DNA of 64,000 nucleotides. Origin: an uncultured Candidatus Saccharibacteria bacterium. GTDB taxonomy: Bacteria > Patescibacteriota > Saccharimonadia > Saccharimonadales > CAIOMD01. The first letter of the stretch is position 1, and every line of letters begins with the position of its first letter. Below, piece by piece: positions 14,423 to 60,391 of this stretch. Made by a program: the position numbers and the translations under genes. Below the pieces are notes generated by a model that was not told the DNA's origin, did no database searches, and saw nothing but the letters and a program-made list of their open reading frames with translations. The stretch spans positions 192,830 to 256,829 of the forward strand of contig OY970318.1 in the NCBI GenBank assembly GCA_963716565.1, written 5' to 3'.

Positions 14423-14440
14423 TCTAACAGGAAAGAACAA

Positions 14441-15167: not shown

Positions 15168-15299
15168 TCCAGCAAAATCATAATATTGCCGTTAAGGCAC
15201 AAAAGTGGTAAGGTAGCGACAACATACAAAACCCTAAGCTACACGCTAAGGGTTAGGTAATGTGACTGTTCTTTCACTCATATACGCAGGGGGTGTCGG

Positions 15300-15731: not shown

Positions 15732-15890
15732 AGTAAAGAGCGTGCCTTCGCGTGAGGCGCCCAAGTTTGTTGTAAAACAGGGGCGCCCACTCGGAGGCGC
15801 TTCTGTTTTAAAGTGTAAAATACTTTATTTATCGTAGTTATTATGGTTTAGTGTTATTGCGTTGAAAATCCCTACCCGTTTGGAGGCAGT

Positions 15891-16319
15891 GTGGATTGCA
15901 AGGCGTTTGCAACCGAGGTGGTAAAGAGGAAGAAAGAGCTTGCGGGCTTGATGCGCGGGCACAGCAAGAACCAGGCGGCGATATGGCTTCAGGTTCGCAA
16001 GGTGCTCCAGGAGCTCGGCGAGGTATACCCAGAGGCCGTCCAGGCGGATTCGTATCGGCATATGGCCGAGCGAGGGTACTGGATGTTGCGCTTTGACACT
16101 CACGGTAACGAACAGCTGATGGTCGATCTGACCACTGGTGACATAGCCGTGATGGGTGCTCTCGAGAAAGACTGGCCAGACTTCATCATCGGGCTGGGCC
16201 CAGACGACCTCAATGCCGGCAAGGAGCTGGAAATCCAGCGGAAGTTGCTTGCCGACTATAAGGGTTGTGCGGCCACCAAGCCCAAGGGCGACGGCCGCCG
16301 GCTTACTACGGCGAGGTAA
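15891..16319 (+). CDS. Hypothetical protein
   Basis: A GTG start lies 4 nt after GGAGG (15882-15886). The double-hairpin terminator at 16352-16414 follows in the same orientation. The antisense ORF 15825..16331 lacks an SD. Confidence 0.5.
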   Translation: MDCKAFATEVVKRKKELAGLMRGHSKNQAAIWLQVRKVLQELGEVYPEAVQADSYRHMAERGYWMLRFDTHGNEQLMVDLTTGDIAVMGALEKDWPDFIIGLGPDDLNAGKELEIQRKLLADYKGCAATKPKGDGRRLTTAR

Positions 16320-16351
16320 GGCTCGCAACACTGGTGCAGACGCTTCAACGT

Positions 16352-16414
16352 GGGGGGCGGGGCTTTAATAGCCCGCCCCCATAGCAGCAGACCCCTAACG
16401 GGTCTTTTTCTTTT
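16352..16414 (+). terminator. Double-hairpin terminator T1 (conserved GC hairpin plus a U-tailed hairpin)
   Basis: The sequence ggggcggggctttaatagcccgcccc is followed by gaccc-ctaac-gggtc-ttttt. The 26-nt first hairpin differs at 1 nt from the one at 18155-18180. Confidence 0.65.
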
Positions 16415-16491
16415 ATAAGCCTTTATTAAATACTACAAATATGTTATTATATGGCCTCCTACGAGAGACTAAACACCCTTGGAGGTGCACC

Positions 16492-17541: not shown

Positions 17542-17626
17542 AGCAAGGTGCTTACGGCCCCCGAAAGCTCGAAAGAGCTCGACGGGGCCGTTTGCCATTT
17601 TATGGGTAAATTTATTGGGCACAGAA

Positions 17627-17654
17627 TTGAATAAAGCGGATATTCTGTTATAAT
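17627..17654 (+). promoter_or_regulatory. Near-consensus sigma70-type promoter with extended -10
   Basis: TTGAAT (17627-17632), a 16-nt spacer ending in TGT, and TATAAT (17649-17654). It lies 37 nt upstream of the ATG at 17691. Confidence 0.5.
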
Positions 17655-17690
17655 ATGCGTAATCTGACAAGATCGAACGCGGAGGTTGTT

Positions 17691-18128
17691 ATGTTCTGGG
17701 GTTGGCGTAAGGTACAAGACCTTGAAGGGCTTGTGCGAGCGGCAAAGAAGAAGGGCGTAACTCTCATCACGGTGCAGGCTGGCTTGGAGTCGCCGGGAGG
17801 GGACGATAACCCCGCAGATCCGTGTGAGGTTCCAGGCGAGTATCGCATCTTCTTGGTGTACTCTCTTGGGTACAAGAAGAGGTGGAAGTTGTACAACGAA
17901 CACATCTTCACCTTCTTCGTGGACGACGAGGCAAATTTCAGCTGCGATGAGTGCCAGCAGTGGAGCATCAAGGCCTTGATGACTGTTAAGGCGCGAGTAG
18001 ATGAGCTCAGCCGTCAGCTGCCGGGAGTCGACATCGAGTTCTGGTACGAGGATGAGCCGGTGACTCCAGAGCTAGTCAAAGAGATGTGCCTCGAGGCCGA
18101 ACGGCTTGAGGTGGTAGCCGACGCCTGA
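17691..18128 (+). CDS. Hypothetical protein
   Basis: I trimmed track ORF 17655..18128 to the ATG at 17691, which lies 6 nt after GGAGG. Terminator T2 follows. Two antisense track ORFs overlap it and are judged spurious. Confidence 0.5.
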   Translation: MFWGWRKVQDLEGLVRAAKKKGVTLITVQAGLESPGGDDNPADPCEVPGEYRIFLVYSLGYKKRWKLYNEHIFTFFVDDEANFSCDECQQWSIKALMTVKARVDELSRQLPGVDIEFWYEDEPVTPELVKEMCLEAERLEVVADA

Positions 18129-18151
18129 CGGCTAAGGATCTGTCAGATCAT

Positions 18152-18209
18152 GGAGGGGCGGGGCTTTAATAGCCTGCCCCTCCGACCGAAGACCTACAAG
18201 GTCTTTTTT
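18152..18209 (+). terminator. Double-hairpin terminator T2 (paralog of T1)
   Basis: The sequence ggaggggcggggctttaatagcctgcccctcc is followed by agacc-tacaa-ggtct-ttttt. Confidence 0.65.
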
Positions 18210-18241
18210 GTTTGTTCAAAGACAAGATGAATAAAAGCTTA

Positions 18242-18275
18242 TAAAAAATCCCGCTTATCGTAGTAGCTAGCGGGA
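18242..18275 (-). terminator. Rho-independent terminator for the minus-strand gene 18323..18697
   Basis: The stem tcccgc/gcggga is followed by a T-run on the minus strand (plus-strand A-run at 18243-18248). Confidence 0.55.
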
Positions 18276-18322
18276 ACGCCGGGTTTGCACCGGAGCGAGT
18301 AATCCTCGCTGGTTGGGGGGCT

Positions 18323-18697
18323 CTAGGCCGGCTGCGGCGGCAGCCATACGGCGTGCTTGCGCAAGCTGATGTCGAAGGCTATATCGCTGTCGTCGCCGCA
18401 GAGTCTGCGGATATGCCAGGCGAAGGCCTCAGACCACTGCTTGAACCGCTTCTTCCTCTTGCGGGTGTGGTGGCCGATCACAGTGATGACCATGTTGTTC
18501 GACAACGAGTCGAGCTTACCGGCCTTCTTGTAGGTCACGGTGACATGGTTGGGATCGAGCAACTCGCCACAGTGCTCTAGAAGCGCCGAATACAGCTGTT
18601 GCTGGATCTTTGGCGTGAGCCACGGGCTGCCGTCATCTGCGTACAGCATCCTTGTGTTCTCCGGGGTGTCCCTGTAAACCACAACGGCCTCGGGCAC
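18323..18697 (-). CDS. Hypothetical protein; speculative tautomerase-superfamily-like (Pro at position 2, two beta-alpha-beta-like halves)
   Basis: I trimmed track ORF 18323..18784 to the in-frame GTG at 18697, which lies 6 nt after GGGAGG. TGTTAAATT (extended -10-like) lies upstream on the minus strand. The fold guess rests only on sequence pattern. Confidence 0.45.
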   Translation of the reverse strand: MPEAVVVYRDTPENTRMLYADDGSPWLTPKIQQQLYSALLEHCGELLDPNHVTVTYKKAGKLDSLSNNMVITVIGHHTRKRKKRFKQWSEAFAWHIRRLCGDDSDIAFDISLRKHAVWLPPQPA

Positions 18698-18896
18698 GAA
18701 GCACCTCCCTGTATAGTCCTCGGCATAACCGAGGTTTTGCCGAAAAACAGAGCATAATTTAACATAAAAAAAGCTAATTAGCAAGACTAAGCAAAGCCAA
18801 TATCTGATGTTGTGTCCTATAAGTTGTAAACCCTTATGCTTGCATTAGCGGTCTTTTATTAGTATGAATATTACATTGCAATAAAAGGAGTATTAT

Positions 18897-19709
18897 ATGG
18901 TCAAGGAGCCCGGTGGACCAAAAAATCCATACGAAGATTACTTTGCCTCAAAAAAAGAGATTACTACTAAAGCTATCGCATCGGGCATAGAAATCCCATC
19001 TGTATATTTAGAGTCAGACGATCCAGACTATTTTCTGGAATTAGACAGTAGTATAGACGAGTTAATGGATGACGATCTCGAAAGGGACGAGGCCTGCGAA
19101 TGCTTAGGTATACCTATCGCAGATATAGATGCGATGGACCTGGTTGAAACTCTAATATTTATAGATGAGTTATGGAAGCTAGATAACAAAGCTAAAGCCA
19201 AAGACGAAATGGAGCTATTGTTCGGCGCTATTTTGCTTTCAGCTAATCTTACAAGTGACGAAAAACTTAAGAGGTTGGCGTTTGTTAACGATTTGCTTAA
19301 AAGCACTGCTGGAGAAATAGAAATTACTCAAGAAAAAGTAGACGAGTTATGTAAAAAGGCCGAGACATCCAAGACTAATAGGATGGCTTTGATGCGTACG
19401 CCTAAAGAGTTAGAACTTTATTTATATAATTCTTTTTCAGAACGTGAGGATGAAGTTGATGATGATGCTATTTGTGAATTAGTAGAAGTTGCTTTAGAAA
19501 TGGTACTAATAAGGATGGCTCAGCAAAAACGCAAAGAGACTACGGGTAGCGATTCTACCGACCCAGACGCTGAGGAACAATACAAGGCCTACCTACAAGA
19601 GGCACAAAAACTTGCCGACTGCATAGGTATGGCCAAACCAGAATTTGAGCATTTTCTTGAAACTGTAGCAAACACCCTGGACAACTACGGATACACAACA
19701 GTTCTTTAA
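18897..19709 (+). CDS. Acidic hypothetical protein
   Basis: AAGGAG lies 7 nt before the ATG. A TTGCAT-17-TATGAA promoter-like pair sits at 18840-18868. The 270-aa product is rich in D and E. No family was recognised. Confidence 0.55.
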   Translation: MVKEPGGPKNPYEDYFASKKEITTKAIASGIEIPSVYLESDDPDYFLELDSSIDELMDDDLERDEACECLGIPIADIDAMDLVETLIFIDELWKLDNKAKAKDEMELLFGAILLSANLTSDEKLKRLAFVNDLLKSTAGEIEITQEKVDELCKKAETSKTNRMALMRTPKELELYLYNSFSEREDEVDDDAICELVEVALEMVLIRMAQQKRKETTGSDSTDPDAEEQYKAYLQEAQKLADCIGMAKPEFEHFLETVANTLDNYGYTTVL

Positions 19710-19807
19710 GCTGTCAGATCGCTACTATTTGCAATTTGTTGTGTTTGGCATCGATTTTTGCCTGAAGACTTTTGTTTCTCTGTTATTCGGTGTAGAATCA
19801 AAAAATT

Positions 19808-20140
19808 ATGAAGGCGTTGAGTTTAAAGCAGCCGTATGCGAGTTTGATTGCCGAAGGCATCAAAACTATCGAAACGCGCAAATGGGCTACAAAATATCGC
19901 GGTGACATCTTAATTTGTGCCTCTAAAAGCGGGCAAGGCGAGCCCAAAGGCGTAGCTTTGTGTATTGTGGAGCTTTACGACATCCGCCCCATGACAAAAG
20001 CCGACGAAGCAGCCGCCTGCATAGAACTCTACCCCAACGCCAAAGCCTGGCTTATCCGCAATTTGCGTGTTCTGCCCAAACCCTTCCCCGTAAAAGGCCA
20101 CCTCAGTTTATTTGATATAGACCTCCCAGGGTGTTGCTAG
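19808..20140 (+). CDS. ASCH domain protein (PUA-like fold)
   Basis: The N-terminus MKALSLKQPYASLIAEGIKTIETRKW..YRGDILI matches the usual ASCH pattern (alS.kqPwa.lI..G.KtiE.R.w...yrG..li). Confidence 0.6.
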   Translation: MKALSLKQPYASLIAEGIKTIETRKWATKYRGDILICASKSGQGEPKGVALCIVELYDIRPMTKADEAAACIELYPNAKAWLIRNLRVLPKPFPVKGHLSLFDIDLPGCC

Positions 20141-20203
20141 CCTTAATTCACGCATAAAAGTGGTATTATATTAGTAGCGATAAATAAACAAAAAAGAATA
20201 GCA

Positions 20204-20554
20204 ATGGATAAAAAAACGCTAGCAGGTATCGACCCTAATAGGCTTGTAATACAAGGCGGAGTTTATCAGGGGTGCGTACTGGAGCGAAGCCTGTCGCAGA
20301 TAGGCGCCGGCGCTGTAAATGACGCTATTGATTGTAAGCGTAAAGACCCCAACAGTGACATTATTCCGGAACGTGAAGGCGAAATAGCCATGGAAAAAGA
20401 AGTAACCAGAAGGGCAGCCGAAGCTAGCAAAGCTCTTTGCGCTGAAGATAGGGCATTCACGGCAGCGGGTGCCGGCTTTGACTTTACCTTAAACCGAATG
20501 ACAAACGAAAGAAAAGGCATAGAACAACAAGAGCGCCCTGCTACACACAAGTAG
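20204..20554 (+). CDS. Hypothetical protein
   Basis: 116-aa ORF. TGGTATTAT (extended -10) lies upstream. No SD is present. Confidence 0.4.
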   Translation: MDKKTLAGIDPNRLVIQGGVYQGCVLERSLSQIGAGAVNDAIDCKRKDPNSDIIPEREGEIAMEKEVTRRAAEASKALCAEDRAFTAAGAGFDFTLNRMTNERKGIEQQERPATHK

Positions 20555-20644
20555 CATGTATGGCACATAAATTACGGTGTGAACTGCTTGTGCTTGCATT
20601 GCTAAAATGACGTAATTGTTATTAAGTATATTATAATCTCTGTT

Positions 20645-22027
20645 ATGTATGAGTGGCAGGATGGAATAACCAAAAAACTTAATCGGTTAGAGGCAGAGTA
20701 CGATGCTCAATTACTTAGAGAAGCCTTTGCTGAAAAAGAGCGACAGTTGCCCGATAGGCTGGCACAGATACAAAGGCAAAACTTTGAAGAATTAACGGCC
20801 GATGAGATAGCCGAAAGATTAGGTATGCCTACTGAGCAGGTAAAAACTACCACTAAAGCGCTTGGTGTGAGATTCATAATCAAAAAAGAAGGTCTAATGA
20901 CCTTTAGCGTTCTACCTGAGTTTACACTTGATTTGCTGATTGATGAACAAAGACGCATGGAGGGGGCGGACGGTGTAGACTGCGCAGAGTCTGTAGAAGA
21001 GCAGGTACCGCCGATAGTAACCGAGGTGCTGGTGCCAGACGATGAACCAGAATGGCAAGGAGTTTATGACTCACTAGAGGAACATATAACCATAGACAAA
21101 ATGTGGAAAGTTGTTGGCAAATCAAGGGGGTGGGTAGAAAGACGAATTGAAGCTTTGGGTATAACACCCGCTATACACCAAACCAGAACGGGGCATCCAG
21201 ATAACCCTTTGTATGCTAAAGAGGTGGCTTTATTTCTAAAAAGAGAAGCTGATGCTAATCCATTAGATAATGGTTGGGTAAATTTACGGCAGCTAGAACA
21301 GATTACTGGGCAAGACCGCGAGTGGATAGCAAATCGTTTACAAGAAGCAAATATCGTCCCAGAATCGAGATGCTCTAGCCTTAGTGGGCATACTTTAGAT
21401 TTTTATCCGCCAGAATCAGCAGAGCTTATTCAAAATGCTGCCGATGAACGACCAGAATTAGCTGCTGATTGGCTTACAGAAGAAGGATTAACAAATGGGC
21501 TGCAAAAATCACTAGCCTGGGTTCGCAACAGGCTCGCACAATACAAAGCTTTGGCCGAAGATAGGCGAGATGAACACGGTGTTACGCGCGTACACTATCC
21601 TCCGCATGTATTCGCCGAACTAGAACAAGTAAAAAATTTTGAACAATCACTTCCTGATGCCGGTGATTATTTAACTTTTTATAATTTAGTATCGGCTATT
21701 GGCAGGTCAGCCCTGTTAGTTGCTAACCGCATAGAAGAATTGGGCATAAAACATGAGTTAAGACGTGGTGGCAGAAACAGGATAACCCCACATTTCCCCC
21801 CAGAGAGCGTTGGTGATATTAAGGGTCTGATAGAAAAACAAGAGTCAAGCGATTTAATTACAACAACGCAGATAGCAGTTAAAACCAAAAAAACTATCGC
21901 CGATGTACGTCAAAGATTAAAAGAACTAGGCATAGAAGCGGTAGAAATAAAAAGAGCCGGCAACGGCTCGTTTAAAGAACACTACTCGCCAGATTGTATT
22001 GAGTTACTTCTTGCAGAAAAAGATTAG
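20645..22027 (+). CDS. Protein with six tandem excisionase/MerR-type (HTH_17-like) winged-helix repeats
   Basis: 460 aa. The repeats fall at aa 50-98, 148-198, 212-262, 277-326, 343-393 and 405-455, and each reads like [LIV]T...[LI]......s...[VI]..R[LI]..LGI........G.....[YF].P[EH]....L. TATAAT at 20632-20637 lies 8 nt before the ATG (leaderless-like). Confidence 0.65.
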   Translation: MYEWQDGITKKLNRLEAEYDAQLLREAFAEKERQLPDRLAQIQRQNFEELTADEIAERLGMPTEQVKTTTKALGVRFIIKKEGLMTFSVLPEFTLDLLIDEQRRMEGADGVDCAESVEEQVPPIVTEVLVPDDEPEWQGVYDSLEEHITIDKMWKVVGKSRGWVERRIEALGITPAIHQTRTGHPDNPLYAKEVALFLKREADANPLDNGWVNLRQLEQITGQDREWIANRLQEANIVPESRCSSLSGHTLDFYPPESAELIQNAADERPELAADWLTEEGLTNGLQKSLAWVRNRLAQYKALAEDRRDEHGVTRVHYPPHVFAELEQVKNFEQSLPDAGDYLTFYNLVSAIGRSALLVANRIEELGIKHELRRGGRNRITPHFPPESVGDIKGLIEKQESSDLITTTQIAVKTKKTIADVRQRLKELGIEAVEIKRAGNGSFKEHYSPDCIELLLAEKD

Positions 22028-23394: not shown

Positions 23395-26300
23395 ATGGCT
23401 CAAACTAAAGCTCCAGCAAAAGACAGCGTCACCACAAAAAAAGACAGGGTATATTTTACAAAAAGCGAAGGAATAGAGCTCCCCAACCTAGTAGACCACC
23501 AAAATAAGAGTTTTGGTTGGTTTGTTAATGAAGGGCTTGGTGAATTATTAGCCGAAATTAATCCAATAGATGATTACACCGGCACCAAACTAACCCTAAA
23601 TTTTAAGAATTATCATTTTGAAGAACCCAAAACTTCAGAAGCCGAAGCCCGTGAAAACAACATTAGCTACGAAGCCCCGCTAAAGGCCTTAGTAGAACTA
23701 ACCAACAAGGTAACCGGCGAAGTTAAGGAACAAGAAATTTACTTAGGCGACTACCCCTGGATGACCACTAGGGGCACTTTTGTAATTAATGGCGCCGAGC
23801 GCGTGGTAGTTAGCCAGTTAATCCGTAGCCCAGGCGTCTTTTTTAAAGCCACTCAACACGGTGGCACCAACCTGTATGGAGCCAAGGTTATTCCTAACCG
23901 AGGAGCTTGGTTAGAATTCGAAACCGCTGCTAATGGAGCCATGTATGTAAAAATAGACCGACGTCGTAAAATCCCAATCACCACCTTGCTAAAAGCTTTG
24001 GGCATGGGCGAAACGTGCTATTAAAGAAGCTGTAAAGCATGTAGATAGCGGCAAACTAAATTACATCGATGCTACGTTAGAAAAAGATCCTTCTAAAGGT
24101 ACTGGCGAAGCTTTAATTGAAGTTTACCGCCGTTTGCGCCCAGGAGACTTAGCTACTGTAGATAACGCCCGTAGCTTGCTAGAAAACATGTTCTACAACT
24201 ACAAGCGTTTTGACTTTAGCCGAGTTGGCCGCTACAAAATGAACAAGCGCTTGGATATGGATATTCCAAATACTGCCGAAAACCGCGTATTGCGCCTAGA
24301 AGACCTTATTGCCATCGTAGCCGAAATTATTCGTTTGAATAACACCCAAGAACCCGATGACGACATCGATAGCCTAGCTAACCGCCGCGTTAAATTGGTA
24401 GGCGAATTAGTACAAAGGCAGTTCCGTATTGGTTTATTGCGTATGGAACGCAACGCCAAAGATCGCATGAGCATGTGCGAAATCGAAACCGTTACACCTG
24501 GCCAGCTTATTAATGCTCGCCCAGTTGTAGCTGCTGTTCGTGAATTCTTTGCCTCGTCTCAGCTAAGCCAGTTTATGGACCAAATTAACCCGCTAAGCGA
24601 ATTAGCTCACAAGCGTCGCTTAAGTTCTATGGGCCCTGGTGGCTTAAGCCGCGAACGGGCTGGTTTTGAAGTACGTGACGCTCACGCTACTCACTATGGC
24701 CGTATTTGCGTGGTAGAAACTCCCGAAGGTGCCAACATTGGTTTGGTACTTAACATGGCTAGTTTTGCCCGTATTAACGAATACGGTTTTATTGAAACTC
24801 CATATAAAAGGGTTATTAATGCCTTGCCAGCCAAGAAGGCTGTTGGCCACATTGCCGGTGTTGATTTAGAAGATGCCAAGGGTAAGACAATTGTTAAAAA
24901 GGGTCAAAAAATTACTGCTGAGCAGGCTAAAAAGCTAGAGGCCATAAAAGAAAAAGCTACTTGGCCAGTTAAGTCCCAAGTTACTAGCGAAATTGTTTAT
25001 TTAGACGCTAGCGAAGAAGAAAAAGCAGTTATTGCCGGAGCCGGTAACGAAACCGACAAAGACGGCTTATTTTGTACATCCCAGAGTATCTGCTCGTAGC
25101 AATATGACTGCCGGTGAAGTTGACCCGCAAGAAGTCACTTATATTGATGCCGATACCAAACAAATTGTTGGTACCAGCGCTGCTTTAATTCCATTTGTAG
25201 AAAAGAACTATGTATACCGAAGTTTGATGGGTAGTAACCAGCAACGCCAGGCTGTACCTTTAATTAATCCAGAAGCTCCAATTGTTGGTTCTGGTGTAGA
25301 AGGTGTAGCTGCCCGCAACACCGGCCAGGTTGTTTTGGCCGAAGGTAAGGGTAAAGTTGTTAAAGCTACTGCCGAAGAAATTGTTGTTGATTACGGCAAG
25401 GTACGAAAAAACCTACAAGCCAATGCACTTTGTGCGCAGCAACGAAGGCTCTTCGATTAATCAAAAAGTGGCCGTTAACAGCGGTGATACTGTAAAAGAA
25501 GGCGACATTCTAATAGAAGGTATGAGCGTACAGGGCGGCGAATTGGCGCTAGGTAAAGACCTGCTAGTAGCCTTTATGCCTTGGTGCGGTTACAACTTTG
25601 AAGACGCTATTATTATTAGCAACCGCTTAGTGCGCGATGACGTGTTCACCAGCATCCACATTGTGGATTACATGACCGAAGTACGCGAAACCAAGTTAGG
25701 GCCAGAAATTGTTACCAGTGATATTCCAAACGTTTCCGAAGAAGCTCTAAGACACTTAGACGAAGATGGTATTGTACGAATCGGTGCCGAAGTTCACCCT
25801 GGCGACATCTTGGTTGGCAAGATTACTCCTAAGGGCGAGCAAGAATTAAGCAGTGAAGAACGCTTGCTACGTGCTATTTTTGGCGAAAAAGCCAAAGAAG
25901 TCCGTGACACTTCGCAGCGTATGAGCAACGGCAAACATGGCAAGGTTGTGGGCGTAAAGATATTTAGCCGCGCCACTGGCCATGAACTTAAGGCCGGCGT
26001 TATCATGCAAATCCAGGTGTTTGTTGCCCAAATGCGCAAGATTGATGTTGGTGATAAGCTAGGTGGTCGCCATGGTAACAAGGGTGTAATTGCCCGTATT
26101 TTGCCACTAGAAGACATGCCATATACCGAAGACGGTACTCCAGTAGATATTGTTTTGAACCCACTAGGTGTACCAAGTCGTATGAACATTGGCCAGTTGT
26201 TTGAAACTCACTTAGGTATGGCCGCTAAGGCATTAGGCTTTAGAGTTGCTAGCCCGCCATTCAATGGTGTGCCAATTGAGACTATCAAAGACTTACTTAA

Positions 26301-26922
26301 AAAAGCCGGCCTAAACGAAGATGGCAAGCAACAGTTGTTTGATGGCCGGACTGGTGCTCCATTTAAAGACCGTACCACTGTTGGCTGTATGTATATGATT
26401 AAGCTAAACCACATGATTGCCGATAAAATCCACGCTCGTTCTACTGGGCCATACACCATGGTTACTCAGCAGCCATTGGGCGGTAAAGCTCAAAACGGTG
26501 GCCAAAGATTCGGCGAAATGGAAGTTTGGGCATTAGAAGCTTACGGTGCTGCTAACACCTTGCAAGAAATGCTAACTATTAAGTCCGACGATGTTTATGG
26601 CCGTGCCAAAGCTTACGAAGCTATCATAAAAGACACCGAAATTGTTGGGCCAAAAGTACCAGAAAGCTTTAACGTACTTGTTAAAGAGCTACAAGGTTTG
26701 TGCCTAAAAGTTGACCTAGTTGACCTAAGCAAAGGCAAGGCAATTGATGCCGAAGCCTTGCTAGAAACTAACATTAAAGACGAAGCAGCTCACGAAGCTG
26801 AAGTAGAAGCTCCACAATCACCTATTAACGACCTAGATATGTCTAAAGAAATCGATAACGACGAATTCTTAATTATGGATGAATCGGGCGAAGAGATTAC
26901 CGTAACCGAAGAAGCTACCTGA
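23395..26922 (+). CDS. rpoB: DNA-directed RNA polymerase beta subunit, reading frame broken about 3 times
   Basis: Track fragments 23395-24024, 24134-25099, 25032-25460 and 25330-26922 read as consecutive RpoB sequence. Frame changes fall near 24010-24030, 25060-25100 and 25390-25440. Confidence 0.9.
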
Positions 26923-26954
26923 AGCAGACAATAACGAAACGGAGGAAGAATAAG

Positions 26955-30756
<3,802 letters not shown>

Positions 30757-30797
30757 TATTGACTCTAATGCTTAAATCTGTTTAAATAAATATTCAC

Positions 30798-31205
30798 ATG
30801 CCTACAATAAATCAATTAATCCGAAAACCACGCAGCAAATCAAAGTTTAAGAGCAAATCGCCAGCTTTGATGCGTGTTACTAATACCCTAAAAACAAAGA
30901 ACTACGAAAAGCCATCACCATTCAAACGTGGTGTTTGCGTTAAGGTAACTACCAAAACTCCTAAAAAGCCAAACTCAGCCTTACGTAAAGTTGCTCGTGT
31001 TCGCTTAAACAACGGTTACGAAGTTTGGGCTTATATTGGTGGAGAAGGCCATAACCTGCAAGAACATGCCGTTGTTTTAGTTAGAGGTGGTAGAGTACCT
31101 GACTTACCTGGTGTACGTTACCATGTTGTTAGGGGTAGTTTAGATCTTCAAGGTGTTACTAATCGTAAACAGGGCCGTAGCAAGTACGGAGCCAAGAAGA
31201 AGTAA
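30798..31205 (+). CDS. rpsL: 30S ribosomal protein S12
   Basis: The product starts [12 protein letters not shown] and contains [10 protein letters not shown]. It is intact. Confidence 0.95.
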
Positions 31206-31322
31206 TTAGTTAATAAATTAATAGGATAGGGACTTTCGTGAACCCTAACTCGCACCATTCAAAAGCTTCAGTGACCGCTCCTTCGTAGCTTAGGAAGAAG
31301 GAAGAGGAACGGAGTATCAAAA

Positions 31323-31803
31323 ATGCCACGCAAGAAAACTAAGAGTTTAGTGCGCGAAATCGCACCAGATCGTAAATATAACAGTGTAAGAGTTGCTCGG
31401 TTGATTAACCGAGTGATGCTTAATGGCAAAAAACAAATTGCCGAAAAAATAGTTTACGACAGCCATGGATATCGCTGCTGAAAAACTAAAAAGCGAAGAT
31501 GCCCTAGCGGTATTAGATAAAGCTTTAGACAACGTAAAGCCAAGCCTAGAGACTAGATCTAGAAGGGTTGGTGGAGCAAATTACCAGATCCCGTTCGAAG
31601 TCCACGGCCAACGCCAGACTCATTTAACTATGATGTGGTTTGTAGCAGCTGCTAGATCCCGCAAAGGGATGCCAATGGCCGAACGTATGGCTATTGAAAT
31701 TATGGATGCCTATAACAACACTGGTACTGCTGTTAAGAAACGTGAAGATACCCATAAGATGGCCGAAAGCAACCGCGCTTTTGCCCACTTTGCCAGAAAC
31801 TAA
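31323..31803 (+). CDS. rpsG: 30S ribosomal protein S7, one frame break
   Basis: The ATG at 31323 gives [21 protein letters not shown]...KIVYDS. A frame change near 31455-31465 then joins track ORF 31465..31803 (MDIAAEKL...). Confidence 0.85.
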
Positions 31804-31820
31804 AACAGAAAGGGAACATA

Positions 31821-33908
31821 ATGGCTAAAAAATATGCACTAAATCACATCAGAAACATCGGTACTATTGCCCATATTGATGCTGGTAAAACTACCGTAAC
31901 CGAAGGTATTTTGTATCGCACTGGTTTAAAGCACAAAATTGGCGCCGTTCACGAAGGTGAAACTACTACCGACTGGATGGAGCAAGAACGCGAACGTGGT
32001 ATTACCATTGTTTCGGCTGCTGTAACCTGTTTTTGGCGTGATCACCAAGTTAACATTATCGATACTCCCGGCCATATTGACTTTACTGTAGAAGTAGAGC
32101 GCAGCTTACGCGTTTTAGACGGTGCAGTTGTAGTTTTTGACGGCAAAATGGGTGTAGAAAGCCAGAGCGAAACCGTATGGCGCCAAGCCGACAAATACGG
32201 TGTTCCACGTATCTGTTTTATTAACAAAATCAACCAGACTGGTGGTGATTTTTATAAGAGCCTAGACAGTATTCATCATCGCTTAAATAAGCATGCTTTT
32301 CCGGTACATTTGCCAATTGGTTTTGAACAAAGTATTAATGGCCTAGTTGATTTAATTAGCCTAAAAGCCTACCAATATAACCGAATTTGACGATAAAGAA
32401 CTAAAAGAAATCCCCATTCCAGCCGACATGCAAGATAAGGTAAGCAAATATCGTTCGCTATTAATCGAAAACGCCGTAGCTGAAGACGAAACAGATTCTA
32501 GAAAAATACCTAGAAGTTGGCGAAGAAGGCTTAAGCGAAGAAGAAATCAGACAAGCTGTTCGTAGTGCCGTATTAACTGGTAAATTCTTTGCCGTTACTG
32601 GTGGTGATGGCCGTGGCGTTATTGTAGAAAAACTGCTAGACCTAGTTGTTGATTTACTACCCAGCCCAGCCGACAAGCCTAGTACTTGGGGTACTCATCC
32701 CAAAACTGGTGACGAAGTAGAACGCAAAAACACCGAAAACGAACCATTCACAGCCTTAGCTTTTAAGATTGCCACCGACCAATTTGTAGGTAAATTAGCA
32801 TACTTTAGAACTTATGCCGGTAAAGTTATCGCTGGCTCATATATTTTGAATAGCTCTACCGGTGAAAAAGAAAGAGTTGGCCGTATTGTTAGAATGCACG
32901 CCGACAAGCGTGAAGATGTTGACGAAGTATCGGCTGGTGATATTGCCGCTATTGTTGGCCTAAAAGGTACAACTACTGGTAATACCTTATGTGATGCGGC
33001 TCATCCAATCGTGCTAGAAAGCATTACCTTCCCAGAGCCTCCAGTTAGCATTGCTATAGAACCGGCTACCAAAGCCGACCAAGAAAAGATGAGTTTAGCC
33101 TTGCAGCGCCTGGCCGAAGAAGACCCAACCTTTAGAATTAAGGTAGATCACGAAACTGGCCAGACCATTATTAGTGGTATGGGTGAACTTCACCTAGAAA
33201 TCATCGTAGACAGAATGAAGCGCGAGTTTAGCGTGGTAGCCAATGTTGGCGCACCACAGGTAGCGTACCGCGAAACTATCCGCAAGGATGGCATCGAAGT
33301 TCAAGGCAAATATATTCGCCAATCTGGTGGTCGCGGCCAGTACGGTGACGTATGGCTAAGATTGTTCCAGAACGAAGCTGGCAAAGGCTTTGAGTTTATT
33401 AACAGTATTAAGGGCGGCGTAATCCCTAGCGAATACATTCCAGCTGTTAAGGCGGGCGTTGAAGAATCTTTAACCAACGGTGTTATTGCCGGCTACCCAG
33501 TTGTAGACGTCAAAGTAGAGCTTTACTATGGCTCGTACCATGATGTTGACTCCAGCGAATTGGCCTTTAAGATCGCCGGATCGATGGCTATAGCCGAAGG
33601 TGTTAAAAAAGCCAATCCAGTACTGTTAGAACCAATCATGAAACTAGTTGTTGTAACTCCCGAAGAGTACATGGGTGACGTTATTGGCGACTTAAACTCC
33701 AAGCGTGGTCGCATAGAAAAGATGGAAGATTTAGCTAACGGTGTGAAAGAAATTACCGCTTTTGTACCACTTGGTGAAATGTTTGGCTATACCACAACTT
33801 TGCGTTCTAACACTAAAGGCCGTGCCAGCTTCTTCGATGGAACTAGACCACTATGCTGACGTTCCACGTAACGTGGCCGAAGCCATTATTGCCAAAAACG
33901 CTAAATAA
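31821..33908 (+). CDS. fusA: Elongation factor G, reading frame broken about 3 times
   Basis: The G domain ([18 protein letters not shown]-like NKIN) lies in 31821-32390. The gene continues in other frames from about 32390 and about 32500, then through track ORF 32846-33859. The true C-terminus (...[15 protein letters not shown]) ends at 33908. Confidence 0.9.
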
Positions 33909-34016
33909 CTCTTTACAAATTCAGTAATGATTAGCTTTACAAAATACAAGACAGATAATTTGCGCTTACACAAAGATGTTAATCGCGTTTAAATTAGAGT
34001 CTAATAAGGAGAACAC

Positions 34017-35200
34017 ATGGCAGACACATTTGATCGCAGCAAACCGCATATGAACGTTGGCACCATGGGTCACGTTGACCATGGCAAGACCAGCTTAACA
34101 TCGGCTATTACAATGGTATTAGCAAAGCGCATGCCGAGCGCTATTAACAAGCCTATCGCTTTTGACCAAATCGATAACGCCCCAGAAGAAAAAGCTCGTG
34201 GTATTACGATTGCTACCTCTCACCAAGAATACGAGAGCGAAAAGCGTCACTATGCTCATGTTGACATGCCAGGTCACGCCGACTATGTCAAAAACATGAT
34301 TACCGGTGCTGCTCAGATTGATGGTGCTATTTTGGTAGTTTCAGCTGCCGATGGCCCTATGCCTCAAACTCGTGAGCACGTTTTGTTAGCTCGCCAAGTT
34401 GGCGTACCAGCTATTTTGGTCTATTTGAACAAAATGGACTTAGCCGACCCAGAGCTAGTTGAACTAGTAGAAATGGACATTCGTGAACTTCTAGAAAAGC
34501 AAGGCTTTGACAAAGATGCTCCTATTATTAAAGGCAGTGCCACCAAAGCTATCGAAGGCGACAAAGAAGCCGAAGATTCCATTATGGAACTTGTTAAAGC
34601 TATGGACGATTACTTCCAGATCCAAAGCGCGAACTAGAAAAACCATTCAGAATGGCCATAGAAGACGTCTTTAGCATCAAAGGCCGTGGTACAGTTGCTA
34701 CTGGCCGTATCGACCAAGGTATTGTTAAAGTTAACGACGAAGTCGAAATCGTTGGCATCCGACCAACCAAAAAGACTGTTGTAACTGGCGTTGAAATGTT
34801 CAAGAAATCCTTGGATCAAGGCCAAGCTGGCGACAACGTTGGCGTATTACTACGCGGCGTAGAGCGAGACGACATTGAGCGCGGTCAAGTATTGTGCAAG
34901 CCAGGCAGTATTACGCCTCACACCGAATTCGACAGTGAAGTTTATATCTTGACTAAAGAAGAAGGCGGTCGCCACACACCATTCTTTAAGGGCTACAAAC
35001 CACAGTTCTACTTCCAGACCACTGACGTGACCGGTGAAGTTGAATTGCCAGCCGACAAAGAAATGGTTATGCCAGGCGATACAATCACCTTTAAGGTAAA
35101 ATTGTTAGCTCCGATTGCAATGGAACAAGGCACTCACTTTGCTATCCGCGAAGGCGGACGTACTGTTGGCGCCGGTGTTGTAACCAAAGTTATCAAATAG
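34017..35200 (+). CDS. tuf: Elongation factor Tu, one frame break
   Basis: 34017-34637 carries [13 protein letters not shown] and NKMD. 34652-35200 carries domains II and III. Adding one C to the CC at about 34616 restores [23 protein letters not shown]. Confidence 0.92.
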
Positions 35201-54947: not shown

Positions 54948-55830
54948 AAACATCGTTAACGATAGCAAGAAACCAGTACGAGCAGATACGCTTTTGACTT
55001 TGGCATATCCTGATTATTCTCGCTCAGCTTTAGTTAAGTTATTCGATCTAGGAGTTATTACTAAAACTAAACGCCCCCTGAGGCCTGGTGACAAAATCCA
55101 GCCCAACGATAAAATCGTGGCCGATATTAGCGCCCTGCAAAAACCAGCTGAAGCTATAGAGCTGCCTATTTTATACGAAGATGAAAACGTAATTGTAATT
55201 GATAAGCCAGTTGGCGTTATTAGCCACGCTAGGGGCAGATATTGGGACGAAGCCTCAGTTGCCAGCTTCGTCCGCAGTAAAGTTACCAGTGACCTTAACA
55301 ACAAAGGGGCTGGCCTGCCTGGCTGGTCGCCAGAACGGCCAGGGATAGTGCATAGATTAGACCGCGCTACCAGTGGCGTAATGATTTGCGCCAAAAACCC
55401 TAAAACAATGAGCTTGCTACAGAAACAGTTTGCCCAGCGCAAAACCAAAAAGAGTTATTTGGCGATAATTGAAGGCACATTAGAGCCAAAGTCGGCCTTA
55501 ATTGACGTACCAATCGATCGTAACCCCAAAAAACCACAAACTTTTGAACCTAGCGCAAAAGGCAAGCCATCCCAAACCCAGTATGAAGTTATCAATACCA
55601 CCAATAAATACTCACTGGTTAAACTAACGCCAGCCACCGGTCGCACTCACCAGCTAAGAGTTCATTTAAAGTATTTAAATCATCCCATAGTGGGCGACGA
55701 ATTATACGGTGGCCAACCGGCCGAACGGCTTTATTTACACGCTAACACATTAGAAATTACTCTGCCAGGCGGGCACAGAAAAGTTTTTGAAAGCCCAATG
55801 CCAACTAGTTTTGATAAGCTATTATCATGA
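54937..55830 (+). CDS. RluA-family 23S rRNA pseudouridine synthase (RluD-like, with S4 domain)
   Basis: It has the HRLDRATSGVM catalytic motif and GRTHQLRVH. Confidence 0.85.
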   Translation: MPTKNIVNDSKKPVRADTLLTLAYPDYSRSALVKLFDLGVITKTKRPLRPGDKIQPNDKIVADISALQKPAEAIELPILYEDENVIVIDKPVGVISHARGRYWDEASVASFVRSKVTSDLNNKGAGLPGWSPERPGIVHRLDRATSGVMICAKNPKTMSLLQKQFAQRKTKKSYLAIIEGTLEPKSALIDVPIDRNPKKPQTFEPSAKGKPSQTQYEVINTTNKYSLVKLTPATGRTHQLRVHLKYLNHPIVGDELYGGQPAERLYLHANTLEITLPGGHRKVFESPMPTSFDKLLS

Positions 55831-56665
55831 ATTTGCTGTTTAACCCTATCGCTGCTAAGCACTACCAGTCTTTTAAAGATGATGCGCCCCAGTGTTTGGT
55901 ACTAGTTGCCCCAGCCGGCAGTGGCAAAGAAACAGTCTTAAAACAGCTAGCTCAAGATATAATGGGCGAAAAATCACTCGGCCGACTATTCGAAATACTC
56001 CCCGAAGCCGATAAAGATTCTATTGGCATAGATGCCATCAGGGAACTTAAGCTGTCTTTACGTTTAAAGTCTAACGACCAACGCGTAGTTTTAATAAACC
56101 AGGCCGAAAAACTTACCCAAGAAGCCCAAAACAGCATTTTAAAACTCTTAGAAAACACCCCAAAAATACTCACTTTTTAATGGGTGCCAACGACTTGAAC
56201 GGCTTGCTAGAAACTATTCTGTCTAGATCTGTTATATGGAACTTTGTAAACCCCACAACTAAGCAAATAAAAGAGTACTTCGGTTCGTTCGATGGGCCTA
56301 AATTAGATAAAGCTATTGCCATTAGCGGCAACAGAGTCGGCTTAATACAGGCTATTTTGAACCAAGACACCGAGCACCCGTTAATCCAGGCTATCGATTC
56401 CGCCAAATCAATACTTAGCAGTAACCACTTCGATAGATTGCTTAAGATCGAGACTCTACATAAAGACCCCAAACAAGTTCTTTTAATACTCGAAGCCCTT
56501 GGATTAATTAGCAAGAGTGCCCTAGAATATTCGGCGGCCAAGAATGATATTAAACAGGTAAAGCAATGGCACAGACGATTAAATGTTGTTATTGAGGCCA
56601 CTCAGCTGATTAGATCAAATATTAATACCAAATTAGTGCTTTCTAAAACTTTCTTAGTGATATAA
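55827..56665 (+). CDS. holB: DNA polymerase III delta' subunit-like clamp-loader protein, one frame break
   Basis: 55827-56180 carries a P-loop (APAGSGKE) and ...LKLLENTPK. 56180-56665 continues with ...LLETILSRS (T.LSR motif). The frame changes near 56165-56180. Confidence 0.6.
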
Positions 56666-57510: not shown

Positions 57511-57587
57511 GCCGACATAGCTCAGCTGGCCAGAGCGGCTGTTTTGTAAACAGCGGGTCGTGGGTTCGAATCCCTCTGTCGGCTCCA
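57511..57587 (+). tRNA. tRNA-Thr (anticodon TGT), CCA encoded
   Basis: Hand-folded cloverleaf: acceptor gccgaca/tgtcggc, anticodon arm gctgt-tttgtaa-acagc, T-arm gtggg-ttcgaat-ccctc (one U-U mismatch). Confidence 0.85.
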
Positions 57588-57694
57588 TTTAGGCATAACT
57601 ATTGCGAGAATGCCTAAAAGACTATCCGTGAGGGAGAGTCCAGGGAGGTGTTAATGGGTACGTATCTGTAGTAAAATACGGTTACGCACCGTAT

Positions 57695-57780
57695 GCAGGG
57701 TTAGTGAAGCGGTCAAACACGGCAGACTGTAAATCTGTTGGCTTTCGCCTTCGTAGGTTCGAATCCTACACCCTGCACCA
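57695..57780 (+). tRNA. tRNA-Tyr (anticodon GTA), long variable arm, CCA encoded
   Basis: Acceptor gcagggt/accctgc, anticodon arm gcaga-ctgtaaa-tctgt, T-arm gtagg-ttcgaat-cctac. Confidence 0.88.
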
Positions 57781-57788
57781 AGCATAGA

Positions 57789-57810
57789 CCCCGCTTAATG
57801 CGGGGTTTTT
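57789..57810 (+). terminator. Rho-independent terminator after tRNA-Tyr
   Basis: The stem ccccgc/gcgggg is followed by a T5 run. Confidence 0.65.
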
Positions 57811-57836
57811 GCTTGGTTTGGTTATATGGTTTTGTA

Positions 57837-57937
57837 CTACGAAGCAGTTTGCGAAGCAAGCCTTCGTAGGTTCGTGTAGCGATTAGCGAAAATAGTCGGG
57901 CGCTTTAGCCCCGACGCTACTTCTACACCCTGCACCA
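57837..57937 (+). other. tRNA-Tyr 3'-end echo: variable/T-stem copy and acceptor 3' strand plus CCA, with the T-loop replaced by the 46-nt conserved GC hairpin module
   Basis: gccttcgtaggttcg (57860-57874) equals 57747-57761. ctacaccctgcacca (57923-57937) equals 57766-57780. The insert at 57875-57920 is homologous to 7533-7579. ctacgaag (57837-57844) is complementary to cttcgtag (57862-57869). Confidence 0.6.
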
Positions 57938-57973
57938 AATAAATGAGCCCACTTTATGTGGGTTTATTTATTT

Positions 57974-58002
57974 GGTTCGAGATCCAGTACTATTCCTACA
58001 CC
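57974..58002 (+). other. Second, more degraded echo of the tRNA-Tyr T-arm
   Basis: ggttcgagatcc, then agtactat, then tcctacacc (the tRNA reads ggttcgaatcctacacc). A T6 run follows. Confidence 0.45.
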
Positions 58003-58048
58003 TTTTTTCATTGGCCATAACTGCATCCTCTGTTAAAATTGTAGATGC

Positions 58049-58123
58049 GCCGACATAGCTCAGTGGTAGAGCACCTCCATGGTAAGGAGGGGGTCCCGAG
58101 TTCAAGTCTCGGTGTCGGCTCCA
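58049..58123 (+). tRNA. tRNA-Thr (anticodon GGT), CCA encoded
   Basis: Acceptor gccgaca/tgtcggc, anticodon arm cctcc-atggtaa-ggagg, T-arm ccgag-ttcaagt-ctcgg. TGTTAAAAT (extended -10) sits about 10 nt upstream. Confidence 0.88.
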
Positions 58124-58443: not shown

Positions 58444-60391
58444 TTAGTTATTCGTCGCGTCGGCTAAATCCAAAATCGTGTTTATAAACTCAACGTGGCT
58501 CCATACTAATGGCGCTACACCAACAGCATAACCAGTACTCGGGTCAATCTGTTCGCTGAATACACCACTTGGCAAAGCATGCCTTAGGCACCACATGGTA
58601 AGATCATTAGCTTTTTGGATATCCCCAGCTTGAATATAATACTGTGCCATCCACATAGTGCACACATACCACGGATTAGGCTGCTGTTGATTGGTGTTGT
58701 TCATATACCAATCGTTTTCATGCCTAACAACGCCCCCAGCCGGCAACTTATTAATTAGCTTTTCTTCTACAGCCTTAATGGTCGCCAGCAGCCGTTTGTT
58801 ATTCAGGGGTTCTTTGCCATAAATGAACGGGCCGTACAGGCTAGATATATCAAGCGTGTTGTCGTACTCTACTTTTCCGTCGGCTTGTCGGTGTATGCCT
58901 TTTATATATGTGCCAGATTCTTCGTTGAATAACTTATCGAATGAACCCTCTATTGTGTCAGCGGCGCTTCGCCACCTATCAACGTCTTCGTCTTTATCGC
59001 CTAGCGCAATTGCCATTTCGGCGGCCTTATTTAAGGCATAAATCACAATTGAGGTCGTATATGTAGTAGTTAAAAACTTTTCTTCCCACAAGTCATAACT
59101 GGCATGAGGCAGGCCAGTGGTTTCGTCTATAAATCGCGCCATAAAGTCGGCCATGGGTTTTATCATTGGGCAATACAGCTTTTCTATAAATTCTTTGTCT
59201 TTGAATTTGTTGTAATACTCGCTAAGCATAACTATAACTACTGCTGTTTCGTTCTTCTTGTATAGCCAGCTCGCGACGCTTATCGTTAACTAGCGGATGC
59301 CAGGTGCTGCCAATGGCTTTGTCGGGTTGATATTTGTGCATCATGTAACCGTTCTTGTCCATCGTGTCACGACAAAATTCAAAAAAGTTTTTAGCTTCTT
59401 CTTGGTAACCAAGCCTAATTAACGGCCATAAAGTGTAGGCGCCATCCCTAGGCCAACAATAACAATAATAATCACGTCCGTAATTAAAAATGCTACTGTC
59501 TCCACTAGCTAAGATGCTGCCACGCTTATCTATGTGAGCCTTTATTACCATTAATGATTTCTTAGTGATATCTTTGTAATCTTCGCTAACAAGTTTTAAC
59601 ACTTCGGAACTTTGATTTAGCCAGCCGTGCCACGATAGCCGAGTAGCTTCCTCGCGAGCATCTATGCCATCGCGTAAGTAAATATCATGGATTGCTTCAC
59701 AGTCGTACTGAGAAGGGGCAGCAATTACCCAATAGTCTACTTTTTTGATTTCGTTCGGGTGCAAGTTCATCTTGAACCGGATAACCGAGTCAACGCCGCC
59801 GTGCTCTATGGCGTTGCCAGACAATTCTCCGTCTTCGGCATCCATGAACGTACCTTGCTTACCCTCCACGTGATAGCTACCTACAGCGTATTGATCAAAT
59901 AATTGGTAGTCGCTTGTCATTCCATAAATCAGCAGGGCACAGGCACCTTTGTAGTCCAGAATATAGTTAGCGTCTGGTACATATAAGGCCGTATCAGCTC
60001 TGCCAGCACGAGAGATTTGGAATATCTGGTGCATGAATAACCGAATGTCACTAATCCTGCTATTCTTGTTTGTAATAGAAATACGCCTAACAAAAACATT
60101 ATATTTAACGTCTAAAAAGTCATTTATTTCTAGGCTTACGCCAAGTTTTTTGGATGACATTTTTATAATGCTCACCAGCGCATCACTATCGAAATCAACG
60201 CCAATCTCCCAAGTGTTGTCGTCTACCCAAGAAAATTGGCCATCTACCCAAACGCCAATTCGGTGATGTTGGCTTCGAGCATTAGTTAGGTTATCTAGCC
60301 CAACGTAGGGGTAATAGAAGTCATTTACCAAGCCTTTTTCATCTAGGCCAACCATTATTTCGCCGTTGCTTAGCATTACCGGGCGGCTCAT
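58444..60391 (-). CDS. GH15 glucoamylase/glucodextranase-like glycoside hydrolase, one frame break
   Basis: Track ORFs 59222-60391 (N-terminal beta-sandwich plus WPRDGAY) and 58444-59229 (the C-terminal part of the (alpha/alpha)6-barrel catalytic domain) join. Shifting frame near 59235-59260 reads ...ETAVVIVMLSEYYNKF. Confidence 0.7.

Follow-up and report, generated by a model that had tools for sequence, protein, structure and literature searches.

The region behind the tRNA-Tyr gene at 57781-58010 of the window, by which we mean the whole stretch of Saccharimonadales DNA that was analysed (64 kb), may well consist of two stacked non-coding units, the proximal one intact and carrying a structured module that we call type A, the distal one being the decayed end of an older unit. 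Such units are widespread in Saccharimonadales, and comparison with related genomes suggests, at about even confidence, that they behave as small non-autonomous recombining or mobile elements aimed at the T-arm and 3′ end of tRNA genes. The unit family appears undescribed and matches no described RNA or mobile element.

Results

Units behind tRNA-Tyr and tRNA-Leu

ARAGORN and Rfam placed four tRNA genes in the window: Leu(TAG) at 7357-7440, Thr(UGU) at 57511-57587, Tyr(GTA) at 57695-57780, and Thr(GGU) at 58049-58123. The tRNA-Tyr(GTA) gene, which like all unit features given below lies on the plus strand, is a functional gene (ARAGORN; Rfam RF00005, 62.6 bits) and the source of the copies downstream of it. 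A 5′ echo, GCCTTCGTAGGTTCG at 57860-57874, repeats positions 57747-57761 of the gene with 100% identity (repeat family D6), covering the end of the variable arm, the T-stem 5′ strand, and the TTCG of the T-loop; the repeat search thereby recovered the exact 15-nt recurrence claimed in a preliminary description of this DNA. The 3′ echo claimed there was also recovered, at a length of 16 nt: CTACACCCTGCACCAA at 57923-57938 equals 57766-57781 (100% identity, repeat family D3) and covers the T-stem 3′ strand, the acceptor 3′ strand, and the CCA plus one extra A. By a rough estimate, an exact 15-mer pair within ~700 nt is expected ~2e-4 times. The two copies are separated by a 48-nt insert at 57875-57922, the type A module, which occupies the T-loop position, scores 59.7 bits with covariance model R2 (at 57866-57926), and has a pattern found at only two loci in the window.

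The module is closed by a stem of GTAGC (57876-57880) and GCTAC (57916-57920), contains the conserved single-stranded stretch GATTAGCGAAAATA, and folds hairpin P3 from GTCGGG (57895-57900) and CCCGAC (57910-57915), and the copied T-stem pairs via one G-U (GTAGG with TCTAC). Upstream of it, hairpin H1 (57837-57869) joins a left arm, CTACGAAG at 57837-57844, to the copied strand complementary to it, CTTCGTAG at 57862-57869. H1 encloses an inner hairpin (GTTTGC-GAA-GCAAGC) and is part of the minimum-energy fold, and its perfect 8-nt complement was matched by 0 of 2000 shuffles. The pairings that the preliminary description had named, namely the closing stem and H1 at this locus, the T-stem with its G-U, and ccttcac/gtgaagg at tRNA-Leu, are all present. 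Two long hairpins of the same build flank these features. Hairpin 1 (57777-57817; ACCAAGCATAGACCCCGC/GCGGGGTTTTTGCTTGGT; inverted repeat I2, arms of 18 nt, 89% complementary) has a terminator-like look, with the ACCA end of tRNA-Tyr pairing in its stem with a downstream TTGGT, and hairpin 2 (ACCAAATAAATGAGCCCAC/GTGGGTTTATTTATTTGGT; inverted repeat I1) spans 57934-57976. Both run from ACCAA to TTGGT, a layout also found 3′ of unit-bearing tRNAs in relatives, and the stems and T-runs of both are visible by eye. A consensus terminator scan left hairpin 1 uncalled and called the inner stem of hairpin 2 (57948-57962) on the minus strand only.

A sister unit lies 3′ of tRNA-Leu(TAG) at 7437-7598 (R2, 62.6 bits at 7527-7586). 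From 5′ to 3′ it comprises a hairpin (7437-7475), the H1 arms CCTTCAC (7494-7500) and GTGAAGG (7525-7531) paired around the inner hairpin GACAGC-N4-GCTGGCG, the type A module (7533-7578), and an exact copy of the tRNA-Leu 3′ end (7579-7598), with the tRNA-Leu T-stem also copied at the module flank. The module core GCGATTAGCGNNAATAGTCGGGCGC has two sites in the 64-kb window, at 57879 and 7540, a result reached in 0 of 100 shuffles, and the Leu and Tyr modules are 90% identical over 41 nt while their flanks match Leu and Tyr, respectively.

The more distal, second echo behind tRNA-Tyr had been described as a further, degraded copy of the tRNA 3′ end, and this account stood in part. Its match to the tRNA is weak (57987-58002, 81% identity, repeat family D7), and a tRNA origin applies to TCCTACACC (57994-58002) only; its 'GGTTCG' is made up of the TTGGT end of hairpin 2 plus unrelated bases and is not an independent copy of the T-arm. 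The remnant of the older unit extends over 57977-58002 and consists of TCGAGATCCAGTACTA followed by TTCCTACACC, the shortened T-stem 3′ strand without CCA. In the related locus L003, which carries a single unit, the final bases of the module align to TCGAGATCCAGTACTA, and the end of that unit aligns with the TCCTACACC stretch and its flank up to tRNA-Thr(GGU), the window and L003 being identical in the alignment from ATTCCTACACC to the tRNA-Thr(GGU) promoter. Judged by this alignment, the second echo is most probably what decay has left of the 3′ end of an older unit, of which L003 retains an intact version. Since the distal remnant and, in the proximal unit, the first half both match this one L003 unit and the middle differs, the window arrangement probably arose by insertion or exchange inside the older unit. 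Many essential genes are split in the window assembly, rpoB, rpoC, fusA, and tuf among them, which makes indel errors probable; single-base differences such as TTCTACA vs. TCCTACA may therefore be unreal.

Distribution and anatomy of the units

By its neighbouring proteins, the window belongs to Saccharimonadales (Saccharibacteria/TM7). The comparative set comprised 89 related loci and the window, together 739 kb of Saccharimonadales DNA in a sample centred on two loci. Among its first 169 tRNA genes, 22 were followed within 700 nt by a same-strand copy of their final 14 nt, as compared with 2 of 169 with such a copy upstream and 0 of 169 with one on the opposite strand. Looking for echoes at other tRNAs, as the preliminary description had suggested, was thus productive, and the bias towards downstream, same-strand copies indicates a directional trait of the whole lineage. 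Once real paralogous tRNAs were removed, ~24 echo-bearing tRNAs remained (Tyr, Thr(UGU), Thr(GGU), Trp, Leu, and Glu), some of them from near-identical contigs, and about 14% of the tRNA genes in the 739 kb have a same-strand unit behind them. With the addition of a His unit in L006, which was recognised by reading its sequence, ~20 independent units behind Tyr, Thr(UGU), Thr(GGU), Trp, Leu, Glu, and His have a common layout. Given that units are present in independent ENA, JGI, and NCBI assemblies, they are not artefacts; the possibility that the echoes are assembly duplications, raised in the preliminary description, is contradicted by the orthologous units in these assemblies. An echo far from its tRNA and bounding a larger island was a single case (L035, at 2.6 kb).

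Units are only ~100-180 nt long. Past the tRNA hairpin and a short spacer, they begin with an arm complementary to the variable-region/T-stem 5′ strand, followed by a loop or small hairpin and by a copy of the variable-region/T-stem 5′ strand itself, which ends in GGT or GGTTCG. A structured module of about 45-100 nt then takes the place of the T-loop, and the unit closes with the remainder of the T-loop, the 3′ strands of first the T-stem and then the acceptor, and, in many cases, CCA. The H1-forming complementary arm differs in sequence from one tRNA identity to the next and reached significance in 12 of 14 units, and the inner hairpin GACAGC-N4-GCTGGCG is common to three (window Leu, L006 His, and L003 Trp). 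The duplicated tRNA segment varies in length from 9 to >21 nt, and many copies are truncated, lack the CCA end, or carry the end of another tRNA. We also considered a decayed full-length tRNA copy as the origin of every unit and dropped this idea: in local alignments, the 5′ regions of 14 units resembled the 5′ halves of their cognate tRNAs no better than shuffles did, which leaves whole-gene duplication and decay unproven for most units. Two clear cases of such a decayed copy are a tRNA-Trp copy in L003 and a tRNA-Tyr-like copy in L035.

Module types, fold, and constraint

The view that a specific element holds the T-loop position in different tRNA contexts, advanced in the preliminary description, was upheld by model R2, which found six strong type A copies: the two in the window (Tyr and Leu), Tyr in L002, Glu in L005, His in L006, and one at the contig end of L004. 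All lie just behind a tRNA on its strand or at a contig end, and weaker relatives occur in L003, L030, and L035. Type A is thus found in Tyr, Leu, Glu, and His contexts, type C in Tyr, Trp, and Leu contexts, and further module types hold the T-loop position behind Tyr, Thr, Trp, and Leu. Across the type A copies, the P3 stem reads GTCGGG/CCCGAC, GTAAGG/CCTTAC, or GTCAGG/CCTGAC, and covariation support in this six-copy alignment is confined to P3 (2 covarying pairs). Other type A copies have an extra variable hairpin that neither window copy has. The type A core of 36-41 nt is 100% identical in two different MAGs at different tRNAs, and among GTDB species representatives the strict type A pattern has 3 copies only, a low copy number that counts against a mobile element.

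For type C, the covariance model gave 7 matches at E<1e-7, and in the alignment, fitted like that of type A to its own model, 96.3% of cells are paired and 20 of 35 pairs have changes on both sides. None of 500 shuffles equalled this, and slid controls reached 32-43%. The structure is closed by the T-stem and includes 15 G-U pairs vs. 2 A-C pairs, an excess indicating that the folding strand is the tRNA strand. A different module, 66 nt long and part of the Thr(UGU) unit, shows 95.5-98.5% identity across three species whose neighbouring gene has 72-77% DNA identity and whose other spacers have 62-87%. The modules are folded on the tRNA strand and are under constraint. As regards the tRNA-derived minihelix RNAs that had also been proposed, the Tyr unit is without the acceptor 5′ strand, and the Leu unit adopts a minihelix fold only if isolated from its upstream hairpin, with z = -1.0, no better than shuffled sequence.

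Gain, loss, and exchange of units

Units differ between close relatives. The Thr(UGU) unit is present in L001, L002, and L003 and absent in the window, the difference being exactly one unit, cleanly bounded by the tRNA 3′ end; L001 is without a Tyr unit. At the Leu locus, the window has type A, L087 has type C and then the 3′ half of a type A unit, L088 has type C and then the end of another type C, and L089 has none. Serial stacking at one tRNA, as had been described for tRNA-Tyr, was seen elsewhere too, with two complete tandem units in L026 and a newer unit plus an older remnant in each of L087, L088, and L083. Newer units adjoin the tRNA, and older ones are displaced outward and erode. Some units have ends of foreign type: in L030, the unit beside a Ser-like tRNA carries a Tyr 3′ end, the His unit in L006 ends, after the His T-stem, in the Tyr sequence cctgcaccaa, and the unit in L083 has a foreign (other-type) Tyr T-stem, behind which lies an older remnant of local type. 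The tRNA-Trp copy in L003 lies just upstream of the working gene, is complete in its 5′ part, carries a type C module in the T-loop, and lacks the acceptor 3′ strand.

Searches for enzymes, mobile elements, and known RNAs

The preliminary description had interpreted the serial echoes as repeated integration and excision at a hot spot and had pointed to an intact element, with an integrase and an attP bearing the module, as something to look for. Pfam searches found no integrase or transposase domains in the 40 ORFs of the window, and neither enzyme was seen among those called genes of L001-L003 and L087-L089 that lie within 3-10 kb of units; near the examined units, including the ORFs beside L004-L006, no recombinase, transposase, or reverse transcriptase was matched in Pfam. 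Viral contigs gave 0 matches to the two type A patterns, the tRNA-Tyr core, and the type C core, and phage and plasmid collections gave no blastn match. Integrase-type integration and excision were therefore not borne out, as neither such an enzyme near the units nor a copy of the module or the tRNA-Tyr core in viral, phage, or plasmid DNA was found, and the surroundings of the units in relatives and the viral contigs yielded no intact element. Of the hallmarks of an att scar, the exact 3′-end repeat of 16 nt is present, and the 48-nt module interrupts the T-arm portion of the core; of those of a MITE, neither terminal inverted repeats shared between unit types nor a target duplication of fixed length was found.

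Only tRNAs were matched in Rfam, at gathering and permissive thresholds for the window and at the gathering threshold for 10 unit-bearing loci, and the group I intron families had no match in either. Scoring for tRNAs returned nothing at 57781-58010 and 7441-7600, even at E<=10, and found the four real tRNAs only. Promoter-like sites inside the units were not found. A full-text literature search turned up no account of either tRNA-tail units or inserts in the T-loop from Patescibacteria. The sole nuclease beside units is a PD-(D/E)XK homing-type endonuclease gene next to tRNA-Tyr in L002. Cargo between tRNA and echo is occasional (a 789-aa ORF in L035 and a weak MazG-like ORF in L039). An ORF in L001 that by eye looked LAGLIDADG-like had weak helix-turn-helix matches only and was set aside.

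Discussion

In our study, non-coding units composed of tRNA-tail copies and a folded module lay behind tRNA genes of several identities. We find it plausible, with belief and doubt in balance, that they are small elements that recombine at the tRNA T-arm and 3′ end and accumulate downstream, the newest being nearest to the tRNA. Entry would occur by a crossover within the T-arm/3′-end sequence common to unit and tRNA gene, which would keep the tRNA intact and leave the unit downstream of it. The agent may be a recombinase, supplied by the host or acting in trans, or else homologous recombination that follows the uptake of DNA, and the conserved fold may serve the unit's own spread or a small-RNA role. 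However, module conservation at orthologous sites suits a host function at least as well, and the tRNA-specific H1 arm is unaccounted for by any simple insertion mechanism. The readings as mobile unit and as host small RNA are compatible rather than exclusive. Tentatively, the units could also be envisaged as a gene-less, RNA-structured mobile element that homes to the tRNA T-loop/T-arm and gains tRNA-matched arms, possibly acting as its own targeting RNA for a recombinase encoded elsewhere; given that one arm is complementary to the left of the site and one is identical to its right, the element may guide its own targeting.

Strong constraint on the modules keeps a host small-RNA role alive, although we regard it as rather doubtful that the units are host-beneficial small RNAs on a tRNA-tail scaffold, produced by read-through from the tRNA promoter and processing to the CCA end, with the module as the protein-binding or regulatory working part. 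Strong covariation with G-U exceeding A-C on the tRNA strand speaks for such RNAs, as does a Thr-unit module conserved at ~97% where the species are otherwise ~75% identical, a type A core without a single difference over 36-41 nt in two MAGs at different tRNAs, and the units' own hairpin and T-run at the 3′ side; the lack of an internal promoter-like site also fits, as the units would then rely on the tRNA promoter. However, the units are dispensable (the window lacks the Thr unit, L089 the Leu unit, and L001 the Tyr unit), unrelated module types swap at one locus, many copies are truncated, CCA-less, or equipped with a foreign tRNA end, the Tyr unit has no acceptor 5′ strand, folding energies are unexceptional, and no Rfam family is matched. 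It is unlikely that the units are att scars, left where tyrosine-integrase elements repeatedly entered the tRNA T-loop/3′ end, each bringing a replacement 3′ end, and deletions spared the attR-side arms. Consistent with such scars, the 3′ segment of the tRNA recurs as direct repeats strictly downstream on its own strand, the newest unit of a stack adjoins the tRNA, and cargo is occasionally present (the ORFs in L035 and L039 and the PD-(D/E)XK gene in L002), but no integrase lies within 3-10 kb of any examined unit and no attP-bearing element occurs in the viral, phage, and plasmid collections, and this absence of a nearby recombinase and of a free copy weakens the classical integrase reading. 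In addition, the repeated core is not continuous but interrupted by the module, the arms of dead elements should show neither compensatory changes nor ~97% conservation across species, and a displaced 3′ end should be of the local type, whereas L030, L006, and L083 carry foreign ones.

Splicing of the module from a functional tRNA interrupted in its T-loop is very improbable. The insert does sit exactly in the T-loop and is closed by the T-stem, the L003 copy keeps the complete 5′ part of tRNA-Trp, and Patescibacteria are rich in tRNA introns (PMC13011429); however, the window units lack the acceptor 5′ strand, the D arm, and the anticodon arm, the unit is always accompanied by an adjacent intact tRNA gene of matching identity, and the L003 copy lacks the acceptor 3′ strand. 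Moreover, the known tRNA introns of Patescibacteria belong to group I and sit in the anticodon loop (PMC13011429), models of group I gave no match, and the modules are far too short. The probability that chance similarity or assembly duplication produced the units is negligible: the window assembly has signs of indel errors, but the repeats of 15 and 16 nt are exact, the 41-nt module recurs at a locus 50 kb off, and homologous units occupy orthologous sites in independent Illumina and long-read assemblies. Both the spliced T-loop intron and the artefact are effectively excluded.

Returning to the units as small recombining elements, integrative elements that target tRNA genes are known for repeating the 3′ part of the tRNA as attL/attR, for accreting in tandem, and for leaving gene-less 'cis-mobilizable' remnants, and the att scar of such elements would be the nearest bacterial analogue. 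Mycobacteriophage Ms6, for example, has its attB in the T-loop (PMC1762012). The units resemble these elements in the T-loop-to-3′-end repeat downstream of an intact tRNA, in stacking, and in their differences between close relatives. In contrast, they were found without integrase or attP, are ~100-180 nt in size, have a core interrupted by a covarying folded module, and possess a tRNA-matched inverted arm, and some distal copies come from a different tRNA. In behaviour, the nearest analogue would be found in archaea, where short inserts have spread among tRNAs and tRNA fragments lie scattered (PMC3293823, PMC4090602). Disrupted tRNA genes of archaea have similar short introns at non-canonical positions, and in Caldiarchaeum tRNA fragments were scattered by a mobile element (PMC3293823; reviewed in PMC4090602 and PMC4390854). 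Like our units, these genes have related short inserts that recur at one structural position in different tRNAs, fragments near and away from the gene, and population heterogeneity. The archaeal system, however, has a protein splicing endonuclease and functional intron-containing genes, while the units occur in a bacterial host as non-functional partial tRNAs beside an intact gene, and no insertion sequence bearing a recombinase was seen.

The group I introns that Patescibacteria have in their tRNA genes are self-splicing, a few hundred nucleotides long, and located in the anticodon loop of functional genes (PMC13011429). They share with the units the phylum and the use of tRNA genes as landing sites for structured RNA, whereas the modules measure about 45-100 nt, hold the T-loop position in partial copies, and have no Rfam intron match. 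Non-tRNA RNAs on tRNA transcripts or with tRNA-like ends include the 3′ETS-leuZ sponge of E. coli, tmRNA, and the tRNA-like Y RNAs. The units may be likened to these tRNA trailers and tRNA-scaffolded RNAs in riding on a tRNA transcript or having tRNA-like ends, and they differ in being dispensable, in turning over, and in matching none of them by sequence or model. In the guide RNAs of IS110/IS1111 elements (bridge RNA or seekRNA), a conserved scaffold is interleaved with short target-matching segments. The likeness is one of layout only, with one segment complementary to the left of the site and the other identical to its right; unlike in IS110/IS1111, no DEDD-type recombinase is near the units, and their segments follow the natural order of the T-arm.

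Saccharibacteria have genomes of <1 Mb with mostly single-copy tRNA genes, and a sizeable share of these tRNA genes trail structured, constrained, and rapidly exchanged non-coding units. Under either reading, as mobile units or as small RNAs, the units explain contig breaks and annotation noise at tRNA loci and provide natural markers of recombination between strains, and the two covariance models (R1 and R2) are applicable to all candidate-phyla genomes. If the units are mobile, they represent a route by which an element that carries no gene can colonise essential tRNA genes and leave them undestroyed; should they be small RNAs, they would constitute a new class of RNA in a phylum for which hardly any regulatory RNA is known.

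tRNA gene copies and possible replacement in relatives

Among the related Saccharimonadales loci that we compared with the window, L003 carries a second copy of tRNA-Trp (9830-9975, minus strand), in which the acceptor 5' strand, the D arm, and the CCA anticodon arm are all intact, while the acceptor 3' strand has been lost and the T-loop holds a 90-nt type C module, the type of folded insert found at the Tyr, Trp, and Leu units. The working tRNA-Trp of L003 lies 33 nt downstream of this module-bearing copy, and the two differ at several positions. Two close relatives also had strongly divergent tRNA-Trp sequences, L001 at 17841-17915 (aggggcatagtacaacgg...) and L003 at 9719-9794 (aggggagtagctcagctgg...), and this divergence at the sequence level suggests that tRNA genes have been replaced via transfer. 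At L002 11980-12225, a 143-nt insert interrupts the resident tRNA-Thr(GGU), identical to that of the window, just past the D arm, and contains a complete, different tRNA-Thr(GGU). Either an invading tRNA has been replacing the resident gene here, or the assembly is chimeric.

Hairpins adjoining the window tRNAs

In the extended hairpins that follow tRNAs and units, the ACCA end itself was regularly paired with a TTGGT further downstream, with stems reaching 18-19 bp after tRNA-Leu (window 7437-7475), after tRNA-Tyr (57777-57817), and after the first tRNA-Tyr echo, or unit (57934-57976), as well as in relatives. This pairing could be relevant to 3'-end processing, for example through cleavage of double-stranded RNA. 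The spacer between tRNA-Thr(UGU) and tRNA-Tyr (window 57588-57694) is conserved in relatives, with 76-87% identity to L001 and L003, and forms a hairpin whose stem reads AGGCAT...ATGCCT in one version and AGGGTAT...ATACCTT in the other, both sides being altered around an invariant loop (CTATTGCGAGA). The spacer had no family match in Rfam, and could represent a small RNA or a leader.

Gene calls and a block with few Pfam matches in the window

Essential genes were broken into multiple ORFs at window 23395-35200, 55827-56665, and 58444-60391: rpoB into three pieces, rpoC into at least four, and fusA and tuf into two each, with the genes for the DNA polymerase III delta' subunit and a GH15 protein also split. 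These splits look like frameshifts introduced by errors in a long-read assembly and not like genuine biology. For two ORFs close to the window end, no called gene was on record. In a run of 12 consecutive ORFs between trigger factor and ClpP (12711-22027), 11 had no Pfam match (E<=1e-5), the remaining one carrying an ASCH domain, and several lie on the opposite strand; the block may be lineage-specific or acquired.

Neighboring genes, a possible island, and inversions

In L002, a PD-(D/E)XK_5 homing-type endonuclease gene (11149-11529) ends 10 nt before tRNA-Tyr, and in L001 the end of a helix-turn-helix ORF of unassigned function (11223-11807) overlaps the start of tRNA-Thr(GGU); the window has no counterpart of either. 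L035 3700-6464 includes a decayed, module-bearing tRNA-Tyr-like copy 2.6 kb away from tRNA-Tyr. The interval between the two contains just one ORF, of 789 aa, which matched no family, so this region may be a unit-bounded island. Segments comprising one or more tRNAs with their units had flipped orientation with respect to the genes on either side in L001 (10700-11140) and L087 (1320-1640), and also in L010, L023, L026, and L040, which makes these tRNA loci hot spots for inversion as well.
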